A stretch of DNA of 64,000 nucleotides from Candidatus Omnitrophota bacterium (GTDB taxonomy: Bacteria; Omnitrophota; Gorgyraeia; Gygaellales; Profunditerraquicolaceae): contig JAQURX010000002.1 of assembly GCA_028715415.1 (NCBI GenBank), positions 4,703 to 68,702 of the forward strand, in the 5' to 3' direction. The number at the start of each line of letters is the position of its first letter. The first letter of the stretch is position 1. The notes beneath the pieces were generated by a model that was not told the DNA's origin, did no database searches, and was given only the letters and a program-made list of their open reading frames with translations. Position numbers and translations under genes: made by a program. Below, piece after piece: positions 925 through 17,038 of this stretch.

Positions 925-940
925 AAGAAAAGGATAGATA

Positions 941-2602: not shown

Positions 2603-2605
2603 AAT

Positions 2606-4759: not shown

Positions 4760-4792
4760 TCTTTAGATAGTAATTCCTTTCTTGTCACTAAA

Positions 4793-5134
4793 ATGCAAAT
4801 AATCAATAAAACTACAAATATAAGTTTGGCCAACGAAGTTATTATAGCGCAATCTTTTTTTAAAAAAGCAAAGGGGCTTTTGGGAGTTAAAGAGTTTAAA
4901 GAAGGACATGCACTTATTATTAAGCCATGTAATTCAATCCATACTTTTTTTATGCAAATTTCAATTGATGTTATATTTGTTGATGCAGCAAATATAGTAG
5001 TTAAATGTATCCCAAATCTTCCGCCATTTCGCTTAAGCCCAATTTATTTTGAAGCAAGCTACGTGATTGAATTACCCGCCGGAACAATCAATAAAACCCA
5101 AGTTAAAACAGGTGATTGCCTTTTAATATCATAG
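4793..5134 (+). CDS. DUF192 family protein
   Basis: 113 aa. The pattern ...KKAKGLLGVKEFKEGHALIIKPCNSIHTFFMQISIDVIFVDAANIVV...IELPAGTI matches the conserved DUF192/COG1430 core. Confidence 0.65.
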   Translation: MQIINKTTNISLANEVIIAQSFFKKAKGLLGVKEFKEGHALIIKPCNSIHTFFMQISIDVIFVDAANIVVKCIPNLPPFRLSPIYFEASYVIELPAGTINKTQVKTGDCLLIS

Positions 5135-5172
5135 CCTATCTGTCCTTTTCAGTTGTTTAAACCTTATTATAA

Positions 5173-5250
5173 ATGTCCAATCAGAGTTCTTGACAATGTC
5201 CAATCTATTTGGTACACTTTAATTGCTATATAAAAATGTCCAAACTGGAG
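5173..5250 (+). promoter_or_regulatory. Cluster of three direct repeats ATGTCCAA(T/A)C overlapping the promoter; candidate operator
   Basis: Exact ATGTCCAATC at 5173-5182 and 5196-5205; ATGTCCAAACTGGAG at 5236-5250. The first two copies are 23 nt apart. The same motif recurs three times at 16493-16555. Confidence 0.5.
5190..5218 (+). promoter_or_regulatory. sigma70-type promoter TTGACA-N17-TACACT for the HTH/PE-rich gene
   Basis: TTGACA lies at 5190-5195, a 17-nt spacer at 5196-5212, and TACACT at 5213-5218. The spacer itself contains one ATGTCCAATC repeat. Confidence 0.5.
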
Positions 5251-5264
5251 TGCTTGAGGTAGGT

Positions 5265-7244
5265 ATGGGTGTAATTTATAAATTAAGGCCGGAAATTAAG
5301 GATTTTATTGTTGAGAAGAAGAAGATTAATCCAATTATTAGTTGTCGTGGCCTTACTGAGCTTATTGAATCTGAATTTAAAATTAAATTATCAAAGTCTA
5401 CTATTAATGCAATAATTAAAGATGCTGGCTTAAGTATGCCGATTGGAAGGAGGCTTAAGAAGCACAAGCATCATCCCAAGGAGCAGATTGTTGAATCAAA
5501 AGAACCGCCTCTAGAATCACCTTCAAAAGAGTTGGTTCCCGTCGAGAAAAAGCCGGAGCAAATAGCTCAGCCAATCAGTATTCCTAAAATTGAAGAACCT
5601 GTTGAAGAAATAAAACCGCCGCAAGAAGCCCCTGAAACACCAATAATTCTCCCAGAAGAAAAACCAATTGAAGAAAAGAAAGAGGAATTGCCAGAGGTTC
5701 AAATAGAAAAGCCAGAGGAGCCGGTTATTGTTGAAAAGCAAGAAGAACTGATTCCTCCTCCAGAGCCTATTTTGGCTAAAGAAGAATTAGCTCAACCTGT
5801 TGCTCCAGAAGAAGTTATTGAAAAAGAACCAGAAAAAGAAGAAATTAGTGAGCCTGTAGTAGAAAAAGTTGTCGAGCCTGCAATATTACCTGTTGCAAGA
5901 GAAGAAGTTAAGAAAAATGAATCTTATGAGGAATTAGTCTCAACTGGAGCGGTTCTTTTAAAAGCTGCTGATTTTATTATTGGTGGAAGCAGTATAATTT
6001 CTGATGCGATCAGGAGTAGAATTATGTCTCTTGATGCCGCTCTTTTAGCTAAGACTGAGAGTGCAATTTATTTGCCTCTATTCCAAGGAGTAGCTGGTGG
6101 GCAGGAAGATGATTTGGAGAAATTATGGTCTTTAGTTGGACGAAATGTCACTTTAGATGCAATTTTGACATATCTTGATGATTTGCAGAAGGTTAAGCCA
6201 GTTAATACTGATATAATCCGTATTATTGACACCTCGGCGCAGGAAGTGAGGTGTATTAAGCTAGATCTTTCTAACGGAAGTATCTTGTATTTGGATGGGC
6301 AGTTTCAAACAGTGTGGTCAACACCGCATATACCGCATAGTTTTAACCTAACTGTAAATAATGTAAAGGGTTACATCAATAATTATTTCTTTGAAGAAAA
6401 GCCGTTAATCCTCGGTATGGCCCCGGGTTATGATTCTCCAACTGATGAATTTTTTAATTTTGCTTTAAGTCTTGATTCAAGAGAAAGAAAAATACGTTCA
6501 CTTTCTCTGATTGCGGATAATCTTGAAGAAATTGAAGTAATCCCAGTTGAAACAGCCCGAAGAAGGTTTTTTATTTTTGGCTTATGGCCGTGGCAATTTA
6601 CTCAGAGCCGGAAAGTAAGTTTATCCGGGGAATTTAAACCGTATCAATCCAATGTTTGCAAAAAAGAGTTATTTATAGCTTCCCTCGGGATTATTTTATC
6701 GCAAGTATCTGGAGATAAATCACTTACATTAAGAGGCTATGCAATAAAAACAAATCTTAACGAGAAAACCAGGTTGGTAATTTTAAGTAATCTTCCCATA
6801 GATACTAGCCCGGATTTATTGATTGAGCCGTATCTTGGCCGTTGGCCGAACTTTGAAGAGGCTTTTAAGGATTTTAGCCGAAAAGTTGAATTATTTACTT
6901 ATACCGCGAATTCGCAGAAATATTTTTCCTCAGCTTCTGCAGATTTATTTACTGTGGCAAACATTGATATCAAAACGATTTTCAACCAGTATCTGAAACT
7001 TTTGGATATGTTCGTAAAATATCATTTTCTACCTCCCGGGTCTGAAGATACAGATTTCTCGTCGATGAAAGAGCAGTTTTATAGCCTTAAAACCACATTT
7101 AAGAAAGAAAAGGGCTGTGTTTTTATCAAATTTCTTACCCCCGAAGGATATGCTTCGCAAAAGCTGCTTTCTTACGCCTGCAACAGACTGAACGAAAGAG
7201 AGATTATTTTCTTTAACGGCCTGCGCGCCTGGTTTTCGCTTTAG
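5265..7244 (+). CDS. Protein with an N-terminal helix-turn-helix-like domain, a ~200-aa Pro/Glu/Val/Lys-rich linker and a ~430-aa C-terminal domain of unknown function
   Basis: The ORF track starts at a TTG at 5223. ATG at 5265 with GAGGTAGG upstream is the more likely start. The N-terminus (RGLTELIESEFKIKLSKSTINAIIKDAGL) looks like a transposase- or regulator-type HTH. The PEVK-like low-complexity region spans ~5480-5900. Confidence 0.6.
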   Translation: MGVIYKLRPEIKDFIVEKKKINPIISCRGLTELIESEFKIKLSKSTINAIIKDAGLSMPIGRRLKKHKHHPKEQIVESKEPPLESPSKELVPVEKKPEQIAQPISIPKIEEPVEEIKPPQEAPETPIILPEEKPIEEKKEELPEVQIEKPEEPVIVEKQEELIPPPEPILAKEELAQPVAPEEVIEKEPEKEEISEPVVEKVVEPAILPVAREEVKKNESYEELVSTGAVLLKAADFIIGGSSIISDAIRSRIMSLDAALLAKTESAIYLPLFQGVAGGQEDDLEKLWSLVGRNVTLDAILTYLDDLQKVKPVNTDIIRIIDTSAQEVRCIKLDLSNGSILYLDGQFQTVWSTPHIPHSFNLTVNNVKGYINNYFFEEKPLILGMAPGYDSPTDEFFNFALSLDSRERKIRSLSLIADNLEEIEVIPVETARRRFFIFGLWPWQFTQSRKVSLSGEFKPYQSNVCKKELFIASLGIILSQVSGDKSLTLRGYAIKTNLNEKTRLVILSNLPIDTSPDLLIEPYLGRWPNFEEAFKDFSRKVELFTYTANSQKYFSSASADLFTVANIDIKTIFNQYLKLLDMFVKYHFLPPGSEDTDFSSMKEQFYSLKTTFKKEKGCVFIKFLTPEGYASQKLLSYACNRLNEREIIFFNGLRAWFSL

Positions 7245-7274
7245 AAAACGCTTTCTTTATACTCCCAAATATCA

Positions 7275-7303
7275 TTGACACTGTATTATATTAATGTTAT
7301 ATT
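7275..7303 (+). promoter_or_regulatory. sigma70-type promoter TTGACA-N17-TATATT (extended -10 TGt) for the Flp pilin operon
   Basis: TTGACA at 7275-7280, a 17-nt spacer, then TATATT at 7298-7303 with TG at 7295-7296. It lies ~230 nt upstream of the first pilin gene. Confidence 0.55.
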
Positions 7304-7311
7304 TTGAATGC

Positions 7312-7445
7312 AATTGAAAGGCGGCAACGAAAAGGCAATTCCACTATGGAGGTAGTGGATGCGCAAAGCCACGGTGAGTATGCTCGCAAAATATTGTTTT
7401 TATATTTCTAGCTTTGGGTCAGAGCGAGAAACTTTTACCGGGTTA
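7312..7445 (+). promoter_or_regulatory. Candidate c-di-GMP-I (GEMM)-like riboswitch aptamer in the pilin operon leader
   Basis: GGCAATTCCACTATGGAGGTAGTGGATGCGCAAAGCCACGG ... GAGCGAGAAACTTTTACCGGGTTACCGAAAGCC shares the GGCAAAC/hairpin/GGACGCAAAGCC and CGGGGTTACCGA signature blocks of the Vc2 c-di-GMP aptamer. It also matches the second element at 16925. It has a longer insertion than typical. Confidence 0.4.
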
Positions 7446-7478
7446 CCGAAAGCCGTCAATGGCTTTCGGTTTTTTATT
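7446..7478 (+). terminator. Intrinsic terminator/attenuator hairpin plus U-tract (expression platform of the leader element)
   Basis: Stem CCGAAAGCC (7446-7454), loop GTCAAT, stem GGCTTTCGG (7461-7469), then TTTTTTATT. The 5' arm overlaps the aptamer 3' stem GGGTTACCGAAAG. Confidence 0.6.
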
Positions 7479-7534
7479 GGATAAATTAGTAAAGACTTTG
7501 TAAAATCAATTAATAAGTTAAAGGAGGTGAGAAA

Positions 7535-7723
7535 ATGTTAAGTTTAAGAGGGAAAAAAGCTCAGAGTACATTAGAGTATATCTTGGTTCTTACGGCTATT
7601 GTTGCAGCAATCGTGGTTGTTTCACAGGGGGTAATAAAAGAAAAGGTTATAAGTATGTTCGGCAATGTAGCTAATCAGGCTGATAAGGCAGTTTCAAAGA
7701 TTAATTTTGATAACGAAGAATAA
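7535..7723 (+). CDS. flp: Flp-family pilin (class III signal peptide, A-QSTLEY motif)
   Basis: 62 aa MLSLRGKKAQSTLEYILVLTAIVAAIVVVSQ. AGGAGGTGAG RBS. G/XXXXEY-type motif with Ala at -1. Confidence 0.75.
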   Translation: MLSLRGKKAQSTLEYILVLTAIVAAIVVVSQGVIKEKVISMFGNVANQADKAVSKINFDNEE

Positions 7724-7751
7724 ACAAAAATTTTTGAGGGAGGTGAAGAAA

Positions 7752-8108
7752 ATGTTGATCTATTTAAACAAAAAAGCGCAAAGCACAGCCGAGTATGTCA
7801 TTGTGTTGGGGTTGGTTGTAGGAGCTGTGGTTGCTATGCAAACATTTGTAAAAAGAGGCTTGCAAGGCAGAATCCATGACGCAGTAAAATATACCGGGGC
7901 TGCAGGCGATACAGATGCAAAAGCAATATTTAAAGGCAACCAGTATGACCCGAATTATGTTGAGAGCAATTTAACAAGATCAAGCTCTTCAGAAGAAAGT
8001 GAAAAAATTGCTACAGGCGGAGGAGAGATTACAAAAGAACTTACCAAGGAATCAAGCTCCACAACTGGTACGCAGACTATGGAAGCAGAAGATGGCAATA
8101 ACGATTAA
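7752..8108 (+). CDS. Flp-type pilin paralog with Ser/Thr/Glu-rich C-terminal tail
   Basis: MLIYLNKKAQSTAEYVIVLGLVVGAVVAM. RBS GAGGGAGGTGAAG before ATG 7752. The ORF track start at 7707 is an upstream in-frame extension. Confidence 0.7.
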   Translation: MLIYLNKKAQSTAEYVIVLGLVVGAVVAMQTFVKRGLQGRIHDAVKYTGAAGDTDAKAIFKGNQYDPNYVESNLTRSSSSEESEKIATGGGEITKELTKESSSTTGTQTMEAEDGNND

Positions 8109-8177
8109 AAGTATGTACTTAACCCCCAATTTTATCGGATAAATTGGGGCGGGCTTGTGCCCAGGGAGGTGGAATAA

Positions 8178-8495
8178 ATGTTGAGATATCACTTAAGAAA
8201 AAAAGGCCAGTCAACTCTGGAATACGCGATTCTTATCGGAGTTATTGTTGCCGGGCTTATCGCGATGCAGACGTATATCAAGAGAGGCTATGAGGGAAAA
8301 TTAAGAGAGAGTGCTGATACTATGGGTAAGCAGTATAATCCCGAGGACACAACTTATAATTATACTACTTCAACCTCTTCTTTAAGTACTGAGGTTGTTT
8401 CTGATTCTAAAACAACAACAACAATTCAGAATCAGACATCGAATAGGACTGGAAACGAAACAGTTGGCGGCGTTACAAACGAAACATTGTTTTAA
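8178..8495 (+). CDS. Flp-type pilin paralog with Thr/Ser-rich C-terminal tail
   Basis: MLRYHLRKKGQSTLEYAILIGVIVAGLIAM. G-QSTLEY fits G/XXXXEY exactly. RBS GGGAGGTGG. Confidence 0.7.
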   Translation: MLRYHLRKKGQSTLEYAILIGVIVAGLIAMQTYIKRGYEGKLRESADTMGKQYNPEDTTYNYTTSTSSLSTEVVSDSKTTTTIQNQTSNRTGNETVGGVTNETLF

Positions 8496-8528
8496 GCAGG
8501 TTAATTAAATTTAAGAGGGGAGAAGCCC

Positions 8529-9380
8529 ATGTTTGTAAAAGCTTTGATATTTTTGGTCGTCTTTGGGGTGATATTCTTTCTTGTCACTTCTGCGTACCCC
8601 GCGTTTGAGATTTTAATGAAACGTTGGCGCAGAAAAAGAATGGATAATATTACCCCAAAGCTGGACCATATGTTTCTGGATATTACATTGCAGAAGCTGA
8701 TGTTTCTGGATGTGTTAGTACCTGTAATATTCGGGATTATAGCAGTTACAGTTTCCAGAAACATTTGGATAGTTTTAGGGGCAATCGTGTTGGGTTTAAT
8801 CATCCCTATCTTCGTGATTAAAAAGTTAGAGTCAATACGCCGGAATAAATTTGCGGGACAAATAGTAGATGTATTGATGATTCTTTCCAGCTGCCTTAAA
8901 GCAGGTTTGAGCATGACGCAGGCTCTGGAAGTTGTGGTTGAAGAAATGCCTTCTCCTGCTAACCAAGAATTTGGCTTAGTAACCCGCCAGATGCAAATGG
9001 GTGTATCTTTGGAGGATGCAATGAACAGCTTGCGCCGGCGTATGAAGGTAAGTGATCTGGATATGGTAGTAACAGCGATGATGGTTGCGAGGGAGAGCGG
9101 AGGAGACCTTACAGAAACATTCTCCCGCCTTGTCTTTACGATTCAGGAACGCAATAAATTAATCAGCCGCGTTAAAGCTTTGTGCGTTCAGGGAAAGTTG
9201 CAGGGTGCGATTATGTCGTTATTACCGATCTTTTTTGCGCTTTTTGTTTATAAGGTTAACCCGCATTTTTTTGATATCTTTTTTGAGGATAACTTTGGAA
9301 GGATGCTTTTTGCATACGCGATAATTTCAGAAATAATGGGGATAATCTTTATCCGCAAATTAAGCAAAGTGGATATTTAG
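8529..9380 (+). CDS. tadB: TadB-like inner-membrane platform protein (T2SS-F domain)
   Basis: 283 aa, multi-TM, with a GspF-like cytoplasmic domain (LKAGLSMTQALEVVVEEMPSP...GVSLEDAMNSL). RBS AGAGGGGAG. Confidence 0.8.
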   Translation: MFVKALIFLVVFGVIFFLVTSAYPAFEILMKRWRRKRMDNITPKLDHMFLDITLQKLMFLDVLVPVIFGIIAVTVSRNIWIVLGAIVLGLIIPIFVIKKLESIRRNKFAGQIVDVLMILSSCLKAGLSMTQALEVVVEEMPSPANQEFGLVTRQMQMGVSLEDAMNSLRRRMKVSDLDMVVTAMMVARESGGDLTETFSRLVFTIQERNKLISRVKALCVQGKLQGAIMSLLPIFFALFVYKVNPHFFDIFFEDNFGRMLFAYAIISEIMGIIFIRKLSKVDI

Positions 9381-9393
9381 GAGAATATATATT

Positions 9394-10287
9394 ATGTTAA
9401 TAATAATAGGGTTGCTTTTAAGTTTAGCGATATATTTAGTGCTCTACCAGATTGGGGTTGCTGCTTCTGAAAAGGCGCATCTTCCGCAGGAAGTTTTTTC
9501 CAATGATGTAGAGCAATCACTTTTGCGTTCTAGTGCTAGCATTGAAACACAGAATACCGCCTGGCTTTCTATTACTAAGCGGTTTAGGGCTCTCGAGAAG
9601 CGTATAAAAGCTACTGGCTTAAGAAGAAAGATAATCAAAGCAGGTTCTCCTATGGGTGTTTTGGAATTCATTTTCTTAAAGATACTTTGTATGACAGCAG
9701 TTCCTTTGATTGCCTTTATTTTATTAGGAAATAAATTTCCGCAGCATTTGGTATTTATTATATCGTTGGGTGTTGGCTTTATTCTTCCGGAATTTTGGTT
9801 GCAAAGGCAGATTAAGATCCGCCAGAACAATATCAGAAAGGACCTGCCCAATATTATCGACCTTTTAAATTTGTGCGTTAGCGGCGGTATGGATTTTATG
9901 CTTGCAGTTAACCGTGTTGTAAAAGAATTACCCAAGTGCGACTTAACGCAGGAATTAAGTGAAGTATACCGCCAGACCCAGATGGGTAAAAGCAGGAAAG
10001 AGGCTTTAAAAGAAATGGCTTGGCGTATAGATATGGCAGAGGTTTATTCATTCGTCAGAACTCTTGTGCAGGCAGATAGGATGGGTTCTCCGATGGCAGA
10101 GGCATTAAAACTTCAGTCAGAAGAGGTCAGGACAAGAAGATTCCATAGAGGAGAGGCAATGGCTTTAAAGGCACCTATAAAACTGCTCTTTCCTCTTTTT
10201 GCATTTATTTTACCGGTTGTTTTGATTATTGTAGGCGGCCCGATTATTTTAAATTTTGTGCGTAACAATGTCAGTATGGGGTTTTAA
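9394..10287 (+). CDS. tadC: TadC-like inner-membrane platform protein (T2SS-F domain)
   Basis: 297 aa. CVSGGMDFMLAVNRVVKELP...YRQTQMGKSRKEALKEMAWR is typical of the GspF/TadC domain. TM segments flank it. Confidence 0.8.
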   Translation: MLIIIGLLLSLAIYLVLYQIGVAASEKAHLPQEVFSNDVEQSLLRSSASIETQNTAWLSITKRFRALEKRIKATGLRRKIIKAGSPMGVLEFIFLKILCMTAVPLIAFILLGNKFPQHLVFIISLGVGFILPEFWLQRQIKIRQNNIRKDLPNIIDLLNLCVSGGMDFMLAVNRVVKELPKCDLTQELSEVYRQTQMGKSRKEALKEMAWRIDMAEVYSFVRTLVQADRMGSPMAEALKLQSEEVRTRRFHRGEAMALKAPIKLLFPLFAFILPVVLIIVGGPIILNFVRNNVSMGF

Positions 10288-10289
10288 AA

Positions 10290-10484
10290 ATGAGAAGACT
10301 AAGACGAGGCCAGAGTACGATTGAGTATTTTTTGATTATGGTGGCTTTTATTTTGGCGCTTCTCGTCAGTAACTTTATTTACAGATTGCATAATCCGACG
10401 GGTTCAGGGATATTCGATAGGTACTTTGTGAATCCGTCCAGCAGGATAGCAGGAAGCATTGGTGCAATGCATTTATTCCATTAA
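10290..10484 (+). CDS. Flp-type pilin paralog
   Basis: MRRLRRGQSTIEYFLIMVAFILALLV. Confidence 0.65.
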   Translation: MRRLRRGQSTIEYFLIMVAFILALLVSNFIYRLHNPTGSGIFDRYFVNPSSRIAGSIGAMHLFH

Positions 10485-10503
10485 GAATTTGGAGGGAAAA
10501 GTT

Positions 10504-10668
10504 ATGTTTAAGAATTTTAGATGCAGAAAAGCGCAAAGCGTTTTGGAATACGCAATGCTCATTATCATTATTGTTACAGCCCTAACAGCTATGAGTTTGT
10601 ATATTCAGCGCGCAATAAATGCCCGTATGAAACAAGTTCAGGCTGAATTGGATGAAAATAAAAGGTAA
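10504..10668 (+). CDS. Flp-type pilin paralog
   Basis: MFKNFRCRKAQSVLEYAMLIIIIVTALTAM. RBS GGAGGGAAAAG before ATG 10504. The ORF track begins at 10459 in the same frame. Confidence 0.65.
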   Translation: MFKNFRCRKAQSVLEYAMLIIIIVTALTAMSLYIQRAINARMKQVQAELDENKR

Positions 10669-10675
10669 GGTAAAT

Positions 10676-11044
10676 ATGAGAAGAGCCCAGAGCACATTAG
10701 AATATTTGGTTTTTATCGCTATCATTGTTGCGGCAGTTACTTCCATGGCCGTATATATGAAAAGGGCTATTCTTGGAAAATACAGGACAAATGCCGAGCA
10801 GGTTAGCGGAAGGTCATTTTATTCTCCGGGAGCAACGGAATCATATTATAAAACAACAAAGGATGTAATAGAGAATAATCATTCGGACAAATTTATACAA
10901 GAAGAGGGCGTTGTCCCTCCGCCAGTAGATGTGCTTGGTTTATCTCTGGGGGGGGAACCGGTGGTTACGCCTAACGTAACTAATATAACAGTTAATTCGG
11001 CTGAAACAGTGTTGCCTTTTGCAAAAGAGCCAGTGAGGCCGTGA
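10676..11044 (+). CDS. Flp-type pilin paralog with extended C-terminal domain
   Basis: MRRAQSTLEYLVFIAIIVAAVTSMAVYM. Likely start ATG 10676 preceded by AAGGTAAGG. ORF track start at 10652. Confidence 0.6.
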   Translation: MRRAQSTLEYLVFIAIIVAAVTSMAVYMKRAILGKYRTNAEQVSGRSFYSPGATESYYKTTKDVIENNHSDKFIQEEGVVPPPVDVLGLSLGGEPVVTPNVTNITVNSAETVLPFAKEPVRP

Positions 11045-11045
11045 T

Positions 11046-11834
11046 ATGAACTACAAAATTAACACAAGAAAACAGAGAGGATTTGCGTTTGCAGAATACG
11101 CTATTCTTATCGGCTTGGTGGCTATGGTGTTTGTAACTATGGATATGTATATTAAACGCGGTATTCAAGCGCGCACAAAGGATATAACAGATTTTTATTT
11201 AAGCCCTAATGGCGCGCCTAAGCAAGCAGTAGACCAGCTTTTGCCCAATAAAACTTACACAAGAGACTCTAGTACGGATTATGATGCAACTTCAGATTTA
11301 TCTATGTCTACAGGTGGAGGTACCGGAGTAGATGTAAGTTCAACCATGACTTCAAAAACACATTCAAAAACTGTAGATCAGGATTTGTATAGCGGCATAC
11401 TACCCGGGAACCTTTTAACTTTTATTCCTTGGGAATCTGGAGATATTCAGGCTCCAAAAAGCGAAGATTATACCAACCCGGATCATACTACTGAAGAAAC
11501 AAAATATGATTGGGAAATTGATGATGATATTCCTCGGCTGCAGGCAGAGGTAGATAAATTGGTTACGAAAGCGCAGATGTTAGAAGAAAGGGCGGCAATG
11601 TTAGATAAAACAAGCGGTTCTGTGTCTTCAGATGCTAATATTTTAAGTGGCAATTTTTTTACCAGTTTCTTTTCTGCAATCACAAGTGGGACTAATTCAA
11701 TGAATCAGACCAGCTCTGATTTATCCAATAATGCCAGTGACCTAAGAAGGCAGGCGCAAGAATTTAGAGATAGGGCTTCTCAAATAGAAGCGAGAATCGC
11801 AAGCCTTACGCAATCAACACAGGTAGGTGCATAA
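11046..11834 (+). CDS. Pilin-like protein (N-terminal Flp-like hydrophobic segment) with a C-terminal coiled-coil region
   Basis: 262 aa. RGFAFAEYAILIGLVAMVFVTM, then Ser/Thr-rich, then a heptad-like C-terminus (LQAEVDKLVTKAQMLEERAAML...RRQAQEFRDRASQIEARIASL). Confidence 0.55.
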   Translation: MNYKINTRKQRGFAFAEYAILIGLVAMVFVTMDMYIKRGIQARTKDITDFYLSPNGAPKQAVDQLLPNKTYTRDSSTDYDATSDLSMSTGGGTGVDVSSTMTSKTHSKTVDQDLYSGILPGNLLTFIPWESGDIQAPKSEDYTNPDHTTEETKYDWEIDDDIPRLQAEVDKLVTKAQMLEERAAMLDKTSGSVSSDANILSGNFFTSFFSAITSGTNSMNQTSSDLSNNASDLRRQAQEFRDRASQIEARIASLTQSTQVGA

Positions 11835-12649
11835 TGATTATATGCGGAAATAATAGAGGACAGGCGGTGTTAGAAATGTCGATTTTCGCGGTTGTATTAT
11901 TTATGGTCTTAGGGGGCCTTATTAGTTATATCCAGCAACTTAACGACCAGCAATATGTGCAGATGGAAACTTTTCGCAGGGCGCTTCAAACAGCAGGTGG
12001 ATCTTTCCCCCAATCATATTTACCAGAAGCTTTAGGAGGCGGCAAAGGAGCGGGTGCTGCGGTTAACTATGTTCTTGTCCAGCACCGTAGATATACTGAT
12101 TTTTCGGATTTCTTCAGGAAAGGCCAGCTGGTTCCTGTCTCTGGCAATGCTTCAATATACTGGGCGATCCCGGCAATTGGCGTAACAAAACCGCAGGACC
12201 GTTTAATTTATAGAATTAATGATGATGAGCCGCTACTTCCTCAAATTGTAAATGATGTAATGGGCGAGTTAAAAGATAGCATCCCGTCAATAGACATTCC
12301 TATTTTAGGCGAAAGTAGTATTACAGTGGGAGTTGCAGATATAAAAACAGATGTTAGTACAGATTTTAAAGAACGGGATATTAAACAAGAAAGCATAAAC
12401 AGTATTATTACTACAAAAAAATCCACACTGAAAGATACGATAAGGACAAGCTTTGGTTATACGGTTATACCGACTGGCTTAGCATCGGATTTAATTGGTA
12501 TTGACCCGGCAAAATTCCCCCAAGCAAATCATTCTATTACGCAGAGATTATATCGGGATGCAAGCGGGCAATATAGATATTCAAGGTTTGTTCCTGAAGG
12601 CACAACTGTAGAGAGAGGCAGGACATGGGAAACTCCTATTGGAAAATAA
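11834..12649 (+). CDS. tadE: TadE-like pseudopilin
   Basis: MIICGNNRGQAVLEMSIFAVVLFMVLGGLISY matches the TadE N-terminal (RGQ..VE..) pattern. Confidence 0.6.
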   Translation: MIICGNNRGQAVLEMSIFAVVLFMVLGGLISYIQQLNDQQYVQMETFRRALQTAGGSFPQSYLPEALGGGKGAGAAVNYVLVQHRRYTDFSDFFRKGQLVPVSGNASIYWAIPAIGVTKPQDRLIYRINDDEPLLPQIVNDVMGELKDSIPSIDIPILGESSITVGVADIKTDVSTDFKERDIKQESINSIITTKKSTLKDTIRTSFGYTVIPTGLASDLIGIDPAKFPQANHSITQRLYRDASGQYRYSRFVPEGTTVERGRTWETPIGK

Positions 12650-12912
12650 AAAATATTATTAAGAATAACAAGGGGCAGAACACTCTGGAGATTACCCTTG
12701 TTTTAATAATTATGATTAGCCTTCTTTATGGAGTGATTAATGTCTGGCTTTGGGGTAACAAACAGATTGTAAAAAGGCAGATTTCGTATAATAATTCAAG
12801 GATACAGGCTGGAACAGCTAAAGATGTATATCTTGAGCCGGTGTGGTGGGATTATAGAGGTAAAGACGCTATAGAAAAATTAACGGAAAACCAAGTCTTA
12901 ATTGATAAATAA
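12625..12912 (+). CDS. Small TadE-like pseudopilin
   Basis: 95 aa NKGQNTLEITLVLIIMISLLYGVINVWLW. Overlaps the preceding gene by 25 nt. Confidence 0.5.
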   Translation: MGNSYWKIKNIIKNNKGQNTLEITLVLIIMISLLYGVINVWLWGNKQIVKRQISYNNSRIQAGTAKDVYLEPVWWDYRGKDAIEKLTENQVLIDK

Positions 12913-12923
12913 AAAGGAAAATA

Positions 12924-15071
12924 ATGTTTATTTATTTTCACCAGAATAGATTAAATTACGAAAAAGGGCAGATGATGCCCGTTTTTATTTTGGTGCTGGT
13001 AGTTATTATTACAATGGCATTGGTTACTGTAAATATTTCTAAGATTGGTCTAATCAAGACAGACTCTTCAAATGCTGCAGATGCCGGTGCTCTGGCCGGA
13101 GGCGCTGCAATGGCAAATACTTTTAATAGTATTGCCTATGCTAATTCAGAGATGAAGGCTGCATATGATGAATTCTTCGCGCAGATGTCCACGATGTTTG
13201 CTATGCAGCTGGTTGCTTTAGTGTTGACTAAAACTTCCGCGACCGCAGCTCAAATAAGCGCAACAGCAGGCTTAGCAGCCGGCCAGGCCGCTGATACGTC
13301 TGCAATGTTAGCATTAGATGAAATTAATAGTGATTTGCCTTGTATTGCAATTGGATTTGCGGAATCGGCTTCTCAAAGCACTACTGCAGCACTCGCAGCT
13401 ATGACAGCTGCTGAAGCTTCAATTGGAACAGCTACTGCCATGATGACTGCAATAAAGATAACAACAGTTGGAATGATGTTATCTACTTTCTTTTTTGCGG
13501 TTGCGCAGAATTTTATGTATTTATCTATCAGAAAAATGGCGCGAGAAGGCAGAAAGAATGCAATCAGGGTTGCCCACCAGTATCTATTTAACAATAGCGG
13601 GATAACTCAAAAGTTAAAAAGGAATATTCTAAAAGACCCGGATTTTGGAATCGGCAATTGGCAGCAATTTAGCAATTATCAACAGGCATTTGCGCTTTTT
13701 ATGAAGTTTATTGTTAAAGACAACTCTTTTTATACTTACCCGTGGATAGATGGGCAAAATAGGACGCATACGGTTACTTCGCAGGTTGACATACGTCCGG
13801 TGGATAAGTTTTCGTTAAAAGTTTCTAATCTGCCGCTTCCCGCAATAGAAGCAATTTTTGCTGTAATCTTAATAACCGTTTCTGCGGCTATCTCTCAGTT
13901 TTCTGCAACCCTTGCTTCTTATGGAAAGGCAATAGCTTCTTACACCGACACAAAAACTAATTATGAGAAGGCACTTGAAGCTTTAGAGAGAGCTTGTGAT
14001 ACTTATTGGCCTTGCCATCTACTTGGAATAAGTTGTGATGTTTATGAGGCATCAATGAATGATGCTATAACTGCATTAACAAAAGGTGAAGAAGCTAACA
14101 AGGCAGGCAATGGTTTTGTTGAGGCTGGCTTAGGCACAAATGCATCAGCAATTGGTACAATTGCCCCAATAAGCACTCTTTTAGTAGGAGGAAATGCTTC
14201 TGCTTTGGGTGGCTTAAGGCCGGGCCCTACATTTACCAGTTTTAGCGATGCCGATGGGCTTTTGTTTATTATTGACTGGATAGAAGATGTTGTGCATGAT
14301 CGTTTAGTGCGCGTTTCAACGACGCAAACTCATGCTGGAGGAGATTTGACTTTATGGCAGACTAAGTATCCAAATATTAGCAGCTATTCTATAGTTAGCT
14401 TTCAGGGAGACGGTCAAATTAAACCTCAGCCAAAAGCAAATTTTGATGCAGATATAAAATGGACTGATATCTATTTACCTGAGATAAATCCTCCGGAGGA
14501 CGCGGTTTGTAAAGAAGTAGAAGGCAAAGTAGGTTTATTGCAAGAGCAGTTGGATAATCTTCAGGCAAGCAGTGATTCAATGGAAGCAAATGCAAATGAT
14601 GTAGATGGGTATGCTCAAACTGTTACAGAAGATAGCAATGCTTTGGCATCAAGTTATACTAGCATAGGCTCAGGGCTTTCTTTGAGCGCTGCGGAAACCA
14701 GAGAAGGGACTAGTGCGATAGATAATAAGGTGCAGAACATAGTAAATTCTTTGCAATCCATCTTAACTTGGATTCAAATCCTGATGGATCCACAGTTGCT
14801 TCCGATATTACTGGAGTTGATAAAGTCGCTTCCTCAAATAAAGGATGGTATTCTTGCAGGCGCAAGTTTTCTTGACGGAGGAGCAAGCTTTCTTAATGGA
14901 GAAGCTGACAGGTTAAATTCTACTGTTGGCTCGGAAACGCAGGCTTACGGAGAATCCACGAACACTATAAGAGAGCATATAGGAGAAGGCGGAGTGCAAC
15001 AGAATGAAATTAATGCAATGCAGGCTGAAATAGAGCAGTATAAAAAAGATTATTCCCAGTGTTCGTTTTAA
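12924..15071 (+). CDS. tadG: TadG-like pilus assembly protein (Tad_N/TadE-G N-terminal domain plus large C-terminal region)
   Basis: 715 aa. MMPVFILVLVVIITMALVTVNISKIGLIKTDSSNAADAGALAGGAAMAN matches the conserved AADAAALAGA block of TadG. The true start may be the ATGATG at 12972. Ala/Ser/Thr-rich. Confidence 0.7.
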   Translation: MFIYFHQNRLNYEKGQMMPVFILVLVVIITMALVTVNISKIGLIKTDSSNAADAGALAGGAAMANTFNSIAYANSEMKAAYDEFFAQMSTMFAMQLVALVLTKTSATAAQISATAGLAAGQAADTSAMLALDEINSDLPCIAIGFAESASQSTTAALAAMTAAEASIGTATAMMTAIKITTVGMMLSTFFFAVAQNFMYLSIRKMAREGRKNAIRVAHQYLFNNSGITQKLKRNILKDPDFGIGNWQQFSNYQQAFALFMKFIVKDNSFYTYPWIDGQNRTHTVTSQVDIRPVDKFSLKVSNLPLPAIEAIFAVILITVSAAISQFSATLASYGKAIASYTDTKTNYEKALEALERACDTYWPCHLLGISCDVYEASMNDAITALTKGEEANKAGNGFVEAGLGTNASAIGTIAPISTLLVGGNASALGGLRPGPTFTSFSDADGLLFIIDWIEDVVHDRLVRVSTTQTHAGGDLTLWQTKYPNISSYSIVSFQGDGQIKPQPKANFDADIKWTDIYLPEINPPEDAVCKEVEGKVGLLQEQLDNLQASSDSMEANANDVDGYAQTVTEDSNALASSYTSIGSGLSLSAAETREGTSAIDNKVQNIVNSLQSILTWIQILMDPQLLPILLELIKSLPQIKDGILAGASFLDGGASFLNGEADRLNSTVGSETQAYGESTNTIREHIGEGGVQQNEINAMQAEIEQYKKDYSQCSF

Positions 15072-16009
15072 GGAGGAGGTGTAAAGTGTTGTTAAAAGCA
15101 AGATACAAGATAATTTCTTTTCTCGCGGCTTTATTTATTTTATCTAATTTGGGAACGTGTTTTTCTGCTTGGTGGGATAATTCATATATACCGGCTCCCC
15201 CTGAAACCGAACAGCTAAGGACGCAAACAAAAGTCTTTTCCGGGACAGAATTCAAATTTACATATTATACCAGCACGCAGGATGAAAAGAGTATAAAGGA
15301 TTTCTATAAACGGGAACTAATTAATTTAGGTTGGAAGGAAAAGCAGATTTTGGATGGTTTAATGGGAGACAAAAAAGAGGAGATAAAAGAGGGTTCAACT
15401 TTAGATTTATTTTTTGACAACAATCTTATTTATGAAAAAGACGGGAAGATGCTCACTGTAACATTCCTTCCTAAAGAAGTCAGGCAGCAAGGAAGGGTTG
15501 ATTATTCAATTAGCATAGGAAAGCCTGATTTCGAAAAGTTTAAAGTTTCTCCTCAGGCAAGCCCAATTCCAAAATTAATGGCTAAGCCCCAAAAGAATGT
15601 TGCCCCGGTTTATCCCGGAGCAGTGTTAGTTAGCCTTTCAGAAAAAGCCGAGTATTTAAAAGCAGTTTATTATACTCAAGATGATATTGAGAAGGTTATG
15701 GATTATTATAAAGGAAAAATGCCTTCATCCGGATGGTCATTGGTTGATGAAGTCCCAATTACAAAAACAGATTACAGTAAGGCAACTGAAAAATTATGGG
15801 ATTTGGAATCATGCCCAACTTGCCAGCAAGGAAAAATAGGATTTTCTCAGATTATGGGAGAGGTTTGGTTTGGAGAATTGAGTTATGCTAATCAAAAAAG
15901 CGATACCTGTAAAGTTGGTTTTATCAACAATGCAAAAGCAGAGGGAGGAAAGCAGGGATATTTACCAGGCTTTACCGCTATAAGAGTAGACTATGAGAAG
16001 AAGAAATAG
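15059..16009 (+). CDS. Secreted or lipoprotein-like protein of unknown function with two internal repeats
   Basis: 316 aa. Likely start GTG 15086 after AAGGAGGAGG. Signal peptide ends near LGTC. Repeated block YYT..D..I.DFYK..L...GW appears at residues ~70 and ~200. Confidence 0.5.
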   Translation: MFVLRRRCKVLLKARYKIISFLAALFILSNLGTCFSAWWDNSYIPAPPETEQLRTQTKVFSGTEFKFTYYTSTQDEKSIKDFYKRELINLGWKEKQILDGLMGDKKEEIKEGSTLDLFFDNNLIYEKDGKMLTVTFLPKEVRQQGRVDYSISIGKPDFEKFKVSPQASPIPKLMAKPQKNVAPVYPGAVLVSLSEKAEYLKAVYYTQDDIEKVMDYYKGKMPSSGWSLVDEVPITKTDYSKATEKLWDLESCPTCQQGKIGFSQIMGEVWFGELSYANQKSDTCKVGFINNAKAEGGKQGYLPGFTAIRVDYEKKK

Positions 16010-16481
16010 TTTTATAAACGCTCAATCATTTGTTGAGTATGCTGTGATTATTGCAGTAGTAGCTGCTGCAATTTTGGCAGGGAGGGCCTTTTTTGTTCGA
16101 GCCTTGCAGGCAAAATACCGCCAGAGCGCAGATACTTTTGGCCAAGGCGAACAGTATGATAAAAGAGCGACCAAAGACGTTTCTTTAGATACTCCGGGGT
16201 CAGATCTTGTCCCTACAATACTCCCTGAGCTTGTGCATGATTGTGATGTAATTAGAGAAAGAGTAACCGGCTTAGAAACATCAATTAGTAACCTTTATAG
16301 TCAGGCAGATAAATTGGAGCAGAGTGCTGCAAGTTTGGCAGTAAGCGCGGCATTGGTAGGCAGCGTAAGCGATATTTCAATTAAGCAGTATAAATCTGAA
16401 GCAACATCTTTAAGAGATGAAGCAGCAGATAAGCAACAGCAGGTAGATACCATTAGAGGCAAGTTTCCAGATTGTTTTTAG
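15993..16481 (+). CDS. Pilin-like protein with C-terminal coiled coil
   Basis: MRRRNSFINAQSFVEYAVIIAVVAAAILAG, then a heptad-like C-terminus. The start overlaps the stop of the previous gene. Confidence 0.6.
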   Translation: MRRRNSFINAQSFVEYAVIIAVVAAAILAGRAFFVRALQAKYRQSADTFGQGEQYDKRATKDVSLDTPGSDLVPTILPELVHDCDVIRERVTGLETSISNLYSQADKLEQSAASLAVSAALVGSVSDISIKQYKSEATSLRDEAADKQQQVDTIRGKFPDCF

Positions 16482-16492
16482 CATGTTTTAAT

Positions 16493-16555
16493 TGTCCAAT
16501 CTGCTAATAAGTAATGTCCAATCTGGATAAAATACAATAAAAATGTCCATTCTGA
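16493..16555 (+). promoter_or_regulatory. Second cluster of three TGTCCAATCTG-type direct repeats
   Basis: TGTCCAATCTG at 16493-16503, ATGTCCAATCTGGA at 16514-16527, ATGTCCATTCTGA at 16543-16555. Spacings are 22 and 29 nt. Same motif as 5173-5250. Confidence 0.5.
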
Positions 16556-16568
16556 AACAAGGTTTTCG

Positions 16569-16654
16569 CTGGTAGATAGAAAAATAGAGGTTGGTTAAGC
16601 TTGTTTCGTTGCCACGAATAAGCGCCTTTCAAGCCAGCCTCTTATTTCTACCAG
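16569..16654. repeat. Long imperfect inverted repeat (potential ~85-nt hairpin)
   Basis: 5' arm CTGGTAGATAGAAAAATAGAGGTTGG (16569-16594) and 3' arm CCAGCCTCTTATTTCTACCAG (16634-16654). The outer 8 bp and inner AGAGG/CCTCT pair perfectly. Confidence 0.4.
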
Positions 16655-16858
16655 TGTTTCAAACATCCCACCATTAGGTTCTCTAAAAGTGAAGTAATCA
16701 TGAAAAACAATAGTTTTTGGGAAGCTTTTGCTTCTTTTCTGGCCAGGTAATTGACAATTAAACTAACTAAAAGTAAATTTTTTAAGCAGAGTTAAAACAT
16801 GCTCAAACTAAAGAACTTTCAATATGAAAGCGCTATCATTTTGGTATGATTTTTTGCT

Positions 16859-16887
16859 TGACACTATTAATAACTATATGATATACT
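16859..16887 (+). promoter_or_regulatory. Near-consensus sigma70 promoter TTGACA-N17-TATACT with extended -10 (TGa)
   Basis: TTGACA at 16859-16864, 17-nt spacer, TATACT at 16882-16887, TG at 16879-16880. About 35 nt upstream of the riboswitch. Confidence 0.6.
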
Positions 16888-16924
16888 TTTGATGCTCTTG
16901 GAAATAAGATTGTTTATCTGAAAA

Positions 16925-17005
16925 AGGTAAACTCCGAGTAATCGGAGGACACAAAGCCACGGGTCCTCACGCGAGAAAGAATTGTAGGATAGCCGGGTTG
17001 CCGAA
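16925..17005 (+). promoter_or_regulatory. c-di-GMP-I (GEMM) riboswitch aptamer
   Basis: GGTAAACTCCGAGTAATCGGAGGACACAAAGCCACGGGTCCT...GTAGGATAGCCGGGTTGCCGAA aligns block-for-block with the Vc2 aptamer (GGCAAACC-hairpin-GGGACGCAAAGCC ... GGTAGGTAGCGGGGTTACCGA). Confidence 0.6.
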
Positions 17006-17038
17006 TAAAAAAATTATTTGACAATCCGGCTTTTTTTT
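16991..17038 (+). terminator. Intrinsic terminator acting as the riboswitch expression platform
   Basis: AGCCGG (16991-16996) pairs with CCGGCT (17025-17030) and is followed by TTTTTTTT (17031-17038). The 5' arm is shared with the aptamer P3 stem, so the two structures are mutually exclusive. Confidence 0.6.

Follow-up and report, generated by a model that had tools for sequence, protein, structure and literature searches.

Organization of the locus

The window, that is the whole stretch of 64,000 nt that was analyzed, carries the gene of a helix-turn-helix (HTH) protein, the genes of a pilus locus (the last one at 15993-16481) and a c-di-GMP-I-GGC riboswitch, which precedes the gene 17080-18078 and then a giant gene starting at 18108. 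Two short elements recur in this region: a 12-mer, ATGTCCAATCTG, hereafter the A site, and a palindrome, GAAAGCGCTTTC, hereafter the B box. A sites 1 to 3 form cluster 1 and A sites 4 to 6 form cluster 2.

5173-5184, plus strand: A site 1, ATGTCCAATCAG, at most one mismatch; distal copy of the putative operator, its end 5 nt upstream of the -35 box
5190-5218, plus strand: sigma-70-type promoter of the HTH gene, TTGACA-N17-TACACT (TTGACA-N16/17-TATAnT is kept upstream of homologues)
5196-5207, plus strand: A site 2, ATGTCCAATCTA, at most one mismatch; within the -35/-10 spacer
5236-5247, plus strand: A site 3, ATGTCCAAACTG, at most one mismatch; proximal copy of the putative operator, between the -10 box and the ribosome-binding site, in the expected transcription start region
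5265-7244, plus strand: gene of the candidate binder (659 aa), with HTH, linker and C-terminal domain
7244-7255: B box, GAAAACGCTTTC, 31 nt upstream of the -35 box (7275) of the flp pilin promoter
16492-16503, plus strand: A site 4, TTGTCCAATCTG, at most one mismatch; 10 nt past the stop codon of the last pilus-locus gene
16514-16525, plus strand: A site 5, ATGTCCAATCTG, exact
16543-16554, plus strand: A site 6, ATGTCCATTCTG, at most one mismatch
16569-16654, plus strand: long imperfect hairpin directly after cluster 2 (folding of a 219-nt region, z = -4.2)
16826-16837: B box, GAAAGCGCTATC, palindrome 32 nt upstream of the -35 box of the riboswitch promoter
16858-16887, plus strand: promoter of the riboswitch and giant-gene operon, TTGACA-N18-TATACT
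16917-17006, plus strand: c-di-GMP-I-GGC riboswitch aptamer (67.7 bits, gathering score 59)
20923-20934, minus strand: A site 7, exact; about 940 codons into the giant gene, function uncertain

The A-site signal resides in the full 12-mer

With at most one mismatch, ATGTCCAATCTG was matched seven times in the whole window for 0.29 matches expected, a count reached in none of 100 dinucleotide-preserving shuffles. The signal was weaker at two mismatches (8 found, 4.8 expected) and the TGTCCA core by itself was not enriched (24 found, 18.5 expected), indicating that it is the full 12-mer that carries the signal. A first-pass annotation of this DNA had listed six copies of the repeat. All six are present on the plus strand, each with one mismatch or none, and five start where they had been placed, the fourth starting at 16492 and not at 16493; the list was incomplete, as it left out A site 7. 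This seventh copy is the sole close match in the 46 kb of the giant gene, and the match found in one other giant gene that was checked (L109) lies at a position which is not homologous. A look-alike noted at 2606, on the cpaE-cpaF start codon, turned out to be a coding coincidence, encoding Met-Ser-Lys-Thr; it was rejected as an A site, the same codons varying synonymously in 53 related loci, at 4-10 mismatches from the motif.

Conservation across Omnitrophota

In 80 related loci (1.25 Mb), 63 exact A sites were found for 0.17 expected, and 142 with one mismatch for 6.2 expected. The full 12-mer occupies fixed positions in more than 100 loci, the proteins of which are just 32-48% identical. 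The motif and its conservation are direct observations, and the proposal of a real cis-regulatory element was borne out, both clusters being kept at the same two places in distantly related Omnitrophota genomes. The A site is a binding-site motif that Omnitrophota share throughout the phylum. An origin by chance, or from coding or low-complexity sequence that yields the word as a by-product, could be argued from the unenriched 6-mer core and from the metagenomes, where 65 contigs hold an exact tandem pair of A sites but about 15 of these hits are unrelated tandem duplications merely holding the word; the shuffles and the fixed positions among such divergent loci have already refuted this explanation.

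In about 35 of the 65 metagenome contigs, pilus genes are followed by A sites, then by the riboswitch and a giant gene; in 4 further contigs, rsmI is followed by A sites and by a giant gene that encodes GNAT acetyltransferase and methyltransferase domains, and about three quarters of the genuine tandem pairs adjoin giant genes. A sites were also detected at parA/parB and ahead of an Rrf2-hcp operon, and phage-like contigs carry them in tandem arrays. Long arrays of the word were seen both on such phage-like contigs and within a parA gene.

A sites flank the promoter of the HTH gene

Comparison with 70 loci encoding relatives of the 5265-7244 protein (32-48% identical) showed that A sites recur in the upstream regions of these genes, on both sides of a near-consensus sigma-70 promoter. 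The proximal copy, between the -10 box and the Shine-Dalgarno sequence, is present with at most one mismatch in 61 of the 70 loci; it begins 38-46 nt after the start of the -35 box, and in 51 loci its end falls 8 nt before the ATG. The distal copy begins 14 or 18-21 nt before the -35 box in most related loci. About ten loci have an A site within the promoter spacer, some eight of them as the reverse complement. The copy at 5196 likewise lies inside the spacer, as first described, and fills most of the 17 nt between TTGACA (5190-5195) and TACACT (5213-5218). In an unbiased 8-mer count, AATGTCCA was the most widespread word, found in 67 of the 70 homologue upstream regions.

The A sites keep to the HTH-gene promoter despite inversion or other neighbours (L007, L014, L059, L056, L067), which makes the adjacent protein the best candidate binder. 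This geometry and the coupling to the HTH gene are direct observations as well; when it comes to the earlier suggestion that the repeats are the operator of that protein, its promoter coupling thus stands, and the identity of the binder is what we infer.

A sites upstream of the riboswitch and giant genes

All 42 loci with a c-di-GMP riboswitch carry 1-4 A sites upstream, 37 of them two or more, and the last A site lies 256-595 nt upstream of the riboswitch core. Upstream of giant genes, 2-3 copies are placed right past the preceding stop codon, and the promoter of the riboswitch/giant-gene operon follows about 165-315 nt downstream; the first copy lies -1 to 31 nt past the stop in the 12 loci that allowed measurement. 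Giant genes of a second class have A sites upstream as well. The view that cluster 2 belongs to the sequence preceding the riboswitch/giant-gene operon was supported. In the window, cluster 2 precedes the riboswitch promoter by about 300 nt, and the hairpin lies between them; this is too far for simple promoter occlusion, a reading that found no support. The hairpin is probably a terminator or a 3' structure of the upstream operon; the 110 nt past the last A site fold much better than shuffles (z below -2) in 18 of the 42 loci.

Spacing of the A sites and recognition on DNA

Start-to-start distances within the two clusters are 23, 40, 22 and 29 nt, so that a spacing of 22-23 nt, as initially reported, fits two of the four and misses the others. 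In related loci, same-strand spacings group at 20-24, 29-32, 39-40, 51-55 and 61-66 nt, with a periodicity of 10.5-10.75 bp (Rayleigh p ~3e-9, a statistic that ignores shared ancestry), and the independent metagenome set gave 20-22, 29-34 and 41-46 nt. The A site is asymmetric. Its copy number is 1-3 (up to 9), and the spacings vary, with values near 21, 31, 42, 52 and 63 bp. The idea of a dimeric regulator was not supported by such an asymmetric site, variable in number and spacing; the arrangement fits single HTH units on a flexible linker and not a fixed dimer.

These data also bear on whether the motif acts in RNA. Translation, stability or termination would then be controlled through AUGUCCAAUCUG, recognised beside the ribosome-binding site in the 5' leader of the HTH mRNA, and in the 3' untranslated region of the operon before it. 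A strong bias to the sense strand (207 plus, 49 minus; 81% sense) would suit such a role, as would the proximal copy abutting GGAGG with its end fixed before the start codon, and the position of the first giant-gene copy just past a stop codon, followed in 18 of 42 loci by a stable hairpin. However, reverse-complement copies occupy a conserved place in promoter spacers, the distal copy lies outside the gene's own transcript and at a constant distance from the -35 box, a DNA landmark, and the spacings track the DNA helical repeat. In addition, neither cluster 1 nor cluster 2 matched an Rfam family or showed a conserved RNA structure, the two copies in parB of L138 are in different reading frames, and inverted pairs occur in L012, L013 and L036. 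We regard the RNA explanation as very unlikely. Because of the spacing multiples of about 10.5 bp, the reverse-complement copies in the spacers and the positions fixed to the -35 box, the A site is judged to be read on DNA and not on RNA.

The 5265-7244 protein as candidate binder

The 5265-7244 protein begins with a three-helix HTH (aa 9-53, modelled with confidence, pLDDT ~90), which has a basic GRRxKK tail behind it. A Pro/Glu-rich linker, predicted to be disordered, covers aa 60-221, and the remaining 440 or so residues (aa 222-659) form a conserved C-terminal domain. Transposase-type HTH families (HTH_33, HTH_32, HTH_Tnp_Tc3_2) match 16 of 27 members, below the Pfam threshold (best E 6e-4 to 1e-2). 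The recognition-helix residues S43, K44, S45 and N48 are at least 96% conserved among 235 members; this conservation parallels that of the A site, both being almost invariant. Going by its co-location with the sites, the protein is most likely the binder of the A site, and its disordered linker of about 160 residues would suit variable A-site spacing. Against this assignment speak the sub-threshold HTH matches and the A sites at parA/parB, at Rrf2-hcp and on phage-like contigs, which would suit a global and a local factor equally.

For the C-terminal domain, Tn5 transposase was the top structural match in both models, a weak one (E ~1e-3, TM 0.22). D236, D344 and E532 are conserved in 95-99% of the 235 members, and the pattern Y523/W527/E532/K540 resembles the YREK region of Tn5. 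The protein matched no Pfam DDE family and no solved structure by sequence, and its transposase ancestry is a lead, not a result. As an alternative to transcriptional control, the protein might still be active as a DDE enzyme descended from Tn5/IS4, with the A sites serving for synapsis or cleavage in a programmed rearrangement (phase variation) of the pilus/giant-gene region. The fold match, the acidic residues, the transposase-type HTH and the exact inverted A site inside the giant gene go in this direction. Nevertheless, both clusters are direct and not inverted repeats, their positions relative to promoter hexamers are typical of operators, and the gene has a conserved place in the locus, with neither terminal inverted repeats nor rearranged variants seen; together with the weakness of the fold match, this leaves an active enzyme highly improbable.

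The B box is likewise conserved and forms part of one regulatory module with the A sites. It is found 31-32 nt upstream of the -35 boxes of pilin and giant-gene promoters; this distance to TTGACA holds for 39 of the 40 cases, which are confined to the promoters of pilins and riboswitches, and the GNAT/methyltransferase giant genes are preceded by the same geometry (L097). The box at 7244 overlaps the last base of the HTH-gene stop codon. It could be a competing target of the 5265-7244 protein, and maybe its real site.

In that case the A site would be bound by another, unlinked and possibly global regulator, the HTH protein binding the B box and controlling the pilin and giant-gene promoters from about -61. 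The start of the B box at the HTH-gene stop codon, its strict distance to TTGACA, shared by the GNAT/methyltransferase giant genes, and the A sites at parA/parB and Rrf2-hcp, which are loci without a link to pili, would all agree with this possibility. It is weakened by the A sites at the HTH-gene promoter in essentially all loci, rearranged ones included, when compared with a B box that follows the gene in just about 19 of 70 loci (strict pattern) and was not found beside it in the rearranged loci L056 and L067. Furthermore, a DNA-binding domain on a disordered tether of 160 residues is a poor match for a tight 12-bp palindrome and a good one for single sites at variable distances, and the predominance of giant genes next to genuine tandem pairs fits a locus-encoded regulator. 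We therefore consider an unlinked regulator unlikely, if still worth bearing in mind.

Proposed mechanism and comparison with known systems

Our preferred reading, which we hold to be somewhat more probable than its negation, is that the A site is an asymmetric double-stranded DNA operator bound by the 5265-7244 protein, which would regulate its own gene and act on the giant genes. The protein would bind A sites through its transposase-type HTH and the following basic tail. Occupied sites around the 5190 promoter would block RNA polymerase at a near-consensus promoter, leading to negative autoregulation. Copies near whole helical turns would place several units on the same DNA face, where they may associate via the large C-terminal domain, each DNA-binding domain being tethered by the linker. 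At giant genes, the A sites probably exert their effect from a distance. They may do so by forming a loop with the promoter region or its B-box factor; alternatively, they may serve as a roadblock or insulator against read-through. Giant-gene expression would thereby be coupled to the level of the regulator. Autoregulation and cross-regulation of the giant-gene region, as put forward in the first-pass annotation, remain the best reading of the site placement, from which we infer the binder, the sign of regulation and the mode of action of cluster 2.

Lambda CI, AraC (O2-I1), LacI and GalR are autoregulated repressors with multiple operators at their own promoter, acting cooperatively or by looping. 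Similarly, several copies of one site here flank or overlap the regulator's own core promoter on the same helix face, and a second controlled promoter has further copies a few hundred bp upstream, within the range over which AraC and GalR loop. Unlike classical operators, the A site is asymmetric and mostly in direct orientation, with no palindrome for a fixed dimer, and from genome to genome its number varies and its spacing changes by whole helical turns; the candidate protein, which at 500-830 residues includes a long disordered linker as well as a large domain of unknown function, is also a putative binder, in contrast to these repressors.

The HTH domains of transposases act as single units on asymmetric binding sites of about 12-20 bp, and the Mu repressor, with operator sites common to it and MuA, is an example of a transposase-derived type of regulator. 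The candidate resembles Tc1/mariner/IS630 and Tn5/IS4 transposases in its N-terminal HTH (matched below threshold) followed by a basic GRR-type tail, in the best structural match of its C-terminal domain, which is Tn5 transposase, and in its three conserved acidic residues and YREK-like stretch. It differs from transposases by the lack of a Pfam DDE match or significant sequence match to a solved transposase, and by a gene fixed in the locus, without inverted terminal repeats and with sites in operator positions.

Iterons and centromere-like direct-repeat arrays occur in plasmids and phages, such as parC of plasmid R1. They share with the A sites the direct repeats at helical-turn spacings, as well as the arrays on phage-like contigs and in a parA gene; in contrast, the A sites of the window are at promoters of chromosomal genes, three per cluster, with no adjacent replication or partition gene.

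In Pseudomonas aeruginosa, PprB is a co-activator of both the large adhesin BapA and the flp-tad-rcp pilus genes, and in Caulobacter both pilA and cell-cycle genes are under the control of CtrA. Likewise, the Tad/Flp pilus genes and the gene of a very large surface protein would here share one regulator, possibly also with parA/parB, whereas PprB and CtrA are response regulators with unrelated sites and the 5265-7244 protein has no receiver domain. Taken together, the A sites and their candidate binder provide a first testable lead on the control of the giant genes of Omnitrophota and of their pili.

Repeat copies in the window

The first-pass annotation had described six copies of a direct repeat in two clusters, read as candidate operators of the adjacent helix-turn-helix (HTH) protein. 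All six were recovered with at most one mismatch to the 12-base element ATGTCCAATCTG (A site), at 5173, 5196 and 5236 (cluster 1) and at 16492, 16514 and 16543 (cluster 2), every one on the + strand, and a seventh, exact copy was found on the - strand. These seven matches compare with 0.29 expected, and none of 100 shuffles got to seven. The 6-mer core by itself was not enriched in the window, which indicates that the signal resides in the entire 12-mer.

Features of the window
49-16481, Tad/Flp pilus locus: CpaB, CpaC, CpaE-CpaF fusion, DUF192, HTH protein, Flp pilins, TadB/C, TadG-like
5265-7244, + strand, HTH gene (659 aa), recorded as PHO70_01050, from an Omnitrophota metagenome-assembled genome
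7244-7255 and 16826-16837, B box AGAAAnCGCTTTCT, a palindrome conserved across the phylum
16569-16654, hairpin after cluster 2
16858, promoter of the riboswitch
16917-17006, c-di-GMP-I-GGC riboswitch, 67.7 bits (Rfam)
17080-18078, gene of a glycine/alanine-rich 332-aa protein, between riboswitch and giant gene
18108-64000, giant reading frame with a peptidase C39 domain at its start; 15,297 codons, still open where the window ends
20923-20934, - strand, seventh A-site copy

The three copies of cluster 1 surround the promoter of the HTH gene, TTGACA-N17-TACACT, with its -35 hexamer at 5190, and the spacer of this promoter is mostly occupied by the copy at 5196. The seventh copy lies antisense about 940 codons into the giant gene, where it encodes ..TDWTF.., and is the sole close match across the 46 kb of this gene. 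Its position is not homologous to that of the only other giant-gene match checked (contig L109), and it could be either functional or a chance match. The look-alike at 2606, also proposed by the first-pass annotation, was dismissed as a coding coincidence. Tiny reading frames (Met-Ser-Asn-Leu) starting from each window copy were likewise rejected, as none has a ribosome-binding site and they are not conserved, the copies being found in differing frames and orientations. Between the pilin promoter (TTGACA at 7275) and the first flp gene (7535), positions 7445-7470 contain a strong hairpin that resembles a terminator and has a T run. It matches no Rfam family and may be a transcribed leader or attenuator of the pilin operon.

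Conservation at the HTH gene

More than 300 homologues of the HTH protein were found, almost all of them in Omnitrophota, and 80 loci were fetched (L001-L080), each encoding a relative 32-48% identical to it. Almost every locus shares the same layout within the 160 nt before the start codon. A near-consensus promoter, TTGACA-N16/17-TATAnT, lies upstream of the homologues; the distal copy begins 14 or 18-21 nt ahead of the -35 and the proximal copy 38-46 nt past the start of the -35. Of these two, the proximal one carries at most one mismatch in 61/70 loci, and in 51/70 it is separated by 8 nt from the ATG, thus abutting the GGAGG ribosome-binding site. About eight loci have a reverse-complement copy within the spacer. 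In a motif-blind 8-mer count, AATGTCCA ranked first, above the -35 word, and was present in 67 of the 70 upstream regions. Across 1.25 Mb of loci, 63 exact and 142 one-mismatch copies were counted versus 0.17 and 6.2 expected from base composition. A stop-to-stop coding mask proved misleading for density, because 5' leaders were counted as coding, and position classes were used instead.

The A sites also follow the gene. They stay at the HTH promoter in L007, L014 and L059, in which the gene has the opposite orientation between the pilin and cpa operons, and are kept there in the relocated loci L056 (5812-9419) and L067 (6558-10194). In these two relocated loci the HTH gene adjoins a group of three genes, the first of which encodes a protein whose beginning resembles a response-regulator receiver domain; this may hint at a signalling input.

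Many loci (for example L003, L005, L018, L022, L048 and L052) also contain recurrent GGGGACAC...GTGTCCCC hairpins and AACGTCCCTGCTTTGG-type repeats in two places: ahead of the HTH promoter, and in the stretch that separates cluster 2 from the riboswitch promoter. These elements look like a terminator or REP-like family; none was found in the window.

A-site pairs upstream of giant genes

The riboswitch core pattern was detected in the window and in 20 of the 80 loci, all of which carry a copy 270-540 nt upstream of it, and 17 at least two. To this set were added metagenome contigs (L081 upward) from a scan for pairs of exact copies separated by 20-50 nt, which returned 65 contigs. About 15 of them are tandem duplications or minisatellites merely containing the 12-mer and were set aside (L081, L095, L102, L103, L106, L110, L113, L123, L128, L132, L133, L137, L139, L143), and about 35 show the order TadC or other pilus-locus gene, copies, riboswitch, giant gene. 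The pooled sets contain 42 loci with a detected riboswitch, which precedes a giant gene in all of them; at least one copy is present in 42/42 and at least two in 37/42. The last copy lies 256-406 nt ahead of the riboswitch core in 37 of the 42 loci, and the first copy -1 to 31 nt past the preceding stop codon in the 12 loci with a callable gene end. In 18/42 loci the 110 nt past the last copy have a far more favourable fold than shuffled sequences; in the window this structure is the hairpin at 16569-16654.

Four further contigs (L086, L097, L119, L122) share a conserved order: rsmI is followed by two A sites starting at its stop codon, a hairpin, a B box, a promoter and a different very long gene, with about 200 nt between the two copies and this gene. 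The encoded protein is secreted, extends over more than 1,300-1,750 aa on the contig and contains GNAT acetyltransferase and methyltransferase domains. Together with the riboswitch loci, these contigs indicate that cluster 2 belongs with the giant-gene upstream region and not with the preceding pilus genes of the window.

Probable recognition of the A site as DNA

Several features of the copies favour recognition as double-stranded DNA. Promoter spacers harbour reverse-complement copies at a conserved position, inverted pairs are found at other places, and the distance of the distal copy to the -35 hexamer is fixed. Same-strand spacings fall at 20-24, 29-32, 39-40, 51-55 and 61-66 nt, a helical period of 10.5-10.75 bp (Rayleigh p ~3e-9, a descriptive value only, as spacing p-values ignore shared ancestry), and the independent metagenome set gave spacings of 20-22, 29-34 and 41-46 nt. 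A role in RNA, for which the strong sense-strand bias (207 vs 49) and the proximity of copies to stop codons and ribosome-binding sites could speak, is a minor rival. The motif is found in both orientations, and neither cluster matches an Rfam family, the c-di-GMP riboswitch at 16917-17006 being the only match in the window, which argues against a structured cis-regulatory RNA and for the DNA reading. We are confident that the A site represents a conserved element in DNA to which a protein binds.

Two known types of site were considered. DnaA boxes, 9-mers of the form TTATCCACA or similar, are found in clusters at replication origins. They were rejected, since only the TGTCCA core is common with the TTGTCCACA variant and the conserved 3' half AATCTG does not fit; in the HTH-gene loci and metagenome contigs covered, A sites are located mainly at the HTH promoter and in giant-gene upstream regions. 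Sites of OmpR/PhoB-type regulators consist of tandem half-sites 10-11 bp apart and are bound by a protein with a receiver domain. These were also rejected, as A-site copies are 20-66 bp apart and the HTH protein has no receiver domain in Pfam searches.

The HTH protein as candidate binder

AlphaFold models the HTH protein as a confident three-helix bundle (aa 9-53, the HTH) with a basic GRRxKK stretch after it, a linker that is disordered and rich in Pro/Glu (aa 60-221), and a 440-residue C-terminal domain (mean pLDDT 82). The Pfam families HTH_33, HTH_32 and HTH_Tnp_Tc3_2, all of the transposase HTH type, matched below threshold only, in 16/27 members. The family comprises 582 clusters at 50% identity, and in nearly all loci checked the gene lies within or beside the pilus cluster, with varying immediate neighbours and orientation.

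The adjacent HTH protein is the favoured candidate binder of the A site. The motif is found at its promoter in essentially every locus, including the inverted and relocated ones; the recognition-helix residues S43, K44, S45 and N48 equal the motif in invariance; and a single HTH on a long flexible tether suits asymmetric, variably spaced sites. As expected of an autoregulated transcription factor, the motif surrounds the gene's own core promoter, in a layout shared by about 70 loci, is conserved at orthologues and follows the gene. Covariation between recognition helix and motif gave nothing, both being nearly invariant.

The B box, a tight palindrome, could instead be the target of the HTH protein. 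In L001-L080 and the window it is restricted to the pilin and riboswitch/giant-gene promoters, where it lies 31 or 32 nt upstream of TTGACA in 39/40 cases, its centre at about -61 being a typical activator position; it is also present ahead of GNAT/methyltransferase giant genes (for example in L097). However, the B box does not follow the HTH gene when this is moved, and such a palindrome is better suited to a compact dimer than to the architecture of this protein. The occurrence of A sites beyond the pilus locus, at parA, parB, an Rrf2-hcp locus and phage-like contigs, weighs against the adjacent protein as binder. The first-pass interpretation as a whole is partly supported: the repeats and their conservation stand, the look-alike does not, and for the entire proposed mechanism, including the identity of the binder, our confidence is modest and only just on the favourable side.

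A-site copies beyond the pilus locus

The copies at parA and parB, at the Rrf2-hcp locus and in phage-like arrays indicate that the reach of the binder exceeds the pilus locus. Two contigs (L094, L120) carry two copies directly upstream of parA. In L129 (3798-4997, - strand) nine copies lie within an insertion of about 130 codons that keeps the frame of a ParA gene, with every spacing divisible by three and the AAA_31 domain split in two, and the ParB gene of L138 (~1486-1520) has two copies, in differing reading frames, in the part for the N-terminal linker. In L105 (~400-1170) two exact A sites precede by about 110 nt a consensus promoter, followed by a structured-looking leader and genes for an Rrf2-family regulator, an Fe-S protein and a protein resembling hybrid-cluster protein (hcp).

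Four phage-like contigs (L093, L087, L127, L130) contain tandem arrays in which 4-7 copies recur every 14 or 16 bp; further copies, dispersed and palindromic, are found close to terminase genes, and L093 gave a Pfam match to a terminase large subunit. None of the phage-like or array-bearing contigs encodes an HTH-domain homologue. These arrays come from the metagenome scan, and a scan of IMG/VR for tandem copies found none. They might serve in packaging or as decoys of the host regulator, or be coincidental.

In one subclade (L030, L038, L039, L040, L045, L057), TCGTCCAATCTG and ATGTCCAATCAG lie 39 nt apart inside the giant gene, about 300 nt into the coding sequence, where they encode ..SSNL.. 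and ..MSNQ... Since this spacing fits the usual helical phasing, the pair may represent operators embedded in coding sequence.

Possible relation to transposases

Foldseek searches of the PDB placed Tn5 transposase on top for both models, weakly (E 9e-4, probability 0.77, TM 0.22). A DDE transposase of this family would be expected to combine an RNase-H-like catalytic fold with a D, D, E triad and the YREK signature. Conservation across 235 family members is 95-99% at D236, D344 and E532, likewise at Y523, W527 and K540, and the series Y523-W527-E532-K540 resembles Y319-W323-E326-K333 of Tn5 (segment IYTHRWRIEEFHKAWK, checked), with a different spacing. Assignment to the IS4/Tn5 family by sequence would call for Pfam DDE_Tnp_1 or significant similarity to a known transposase. 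The HTH protein matches no Pfam DDE family, profile searches of PDB sequences with the whole protein and with the C-terminal domain returned no transposase, and an exhaustive profile search gave only close family members among the matches listed. The locus also differs from an IS4/Tn5 transposon, which would be expected to have terminal inverted repeats and to occur in several copies at variable genomic places: the repeats are direct and located at promoters, there are no inverted ends, and the HTH gene remains associated with the pilus locus, so that a transposon was rejected. Descent of the protein from a transposase is only a lead.

In a broader scheme, which we consider unlikely, the binder would stem from a Tn5/IS4-like transposase by domestication, with the catalytic acidic residues retained, and would bridge A-site arrays through its former end-binding HTH and a synapsis-competent C-terminal domain. 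As a master switch it would then control Tad pili and giant surface proteins, and possibly parAB; coding sequences (parA, parB, the 5' end of some giant genes) would have acquired its sites, and phages would have copied them in array form.

Proposed mechanism and significance

At its own promoter, the simplest reading is that the HTH protein would exert negative autoregulation by occlusion, since the A sites bracket and overlap a strong promoter. The proposed system would work like a classical multi-operator autoregulated repressor, from which it differs by its asymmetric, direct and variably spaced sites and its unusual protein. At giant genes, cluster-2-type sites lie 165-315 nt from the -35 of the giant-gene operon, with the hairpin between. 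Bound protein could act there by looping to the promoter region or to a B-box factor, or alternatively as a roadblock or insulator versus read-through from the preceding operon.

Omnitrophota, bacteria that are ultra-small and have not been cultivated, are noted for genes 15,000 to more than 40,000 codons long that adjoin Tad-like secretion and pilus genes. The literature examined describes this gene neighbourhood and mentions no regulator, riboswitch or promoter motif in it, and the candidate regulator-operator pair appears to be previously undescribed. The analysis points to a conserved regulatory module ahead of giant genes, made of A sites, hairpin, B box, consensus promoter and c-di-GMP riboswitch, and puts forward, as candidate regulators, a family of about 580 sequence clusters to which no function is assigned. 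The A-site motif can be used for regulon prediction in newly available complete genomes, and the switching of giant genes becomes testable with recombinant protein and synthetic DNA, without cultivation.
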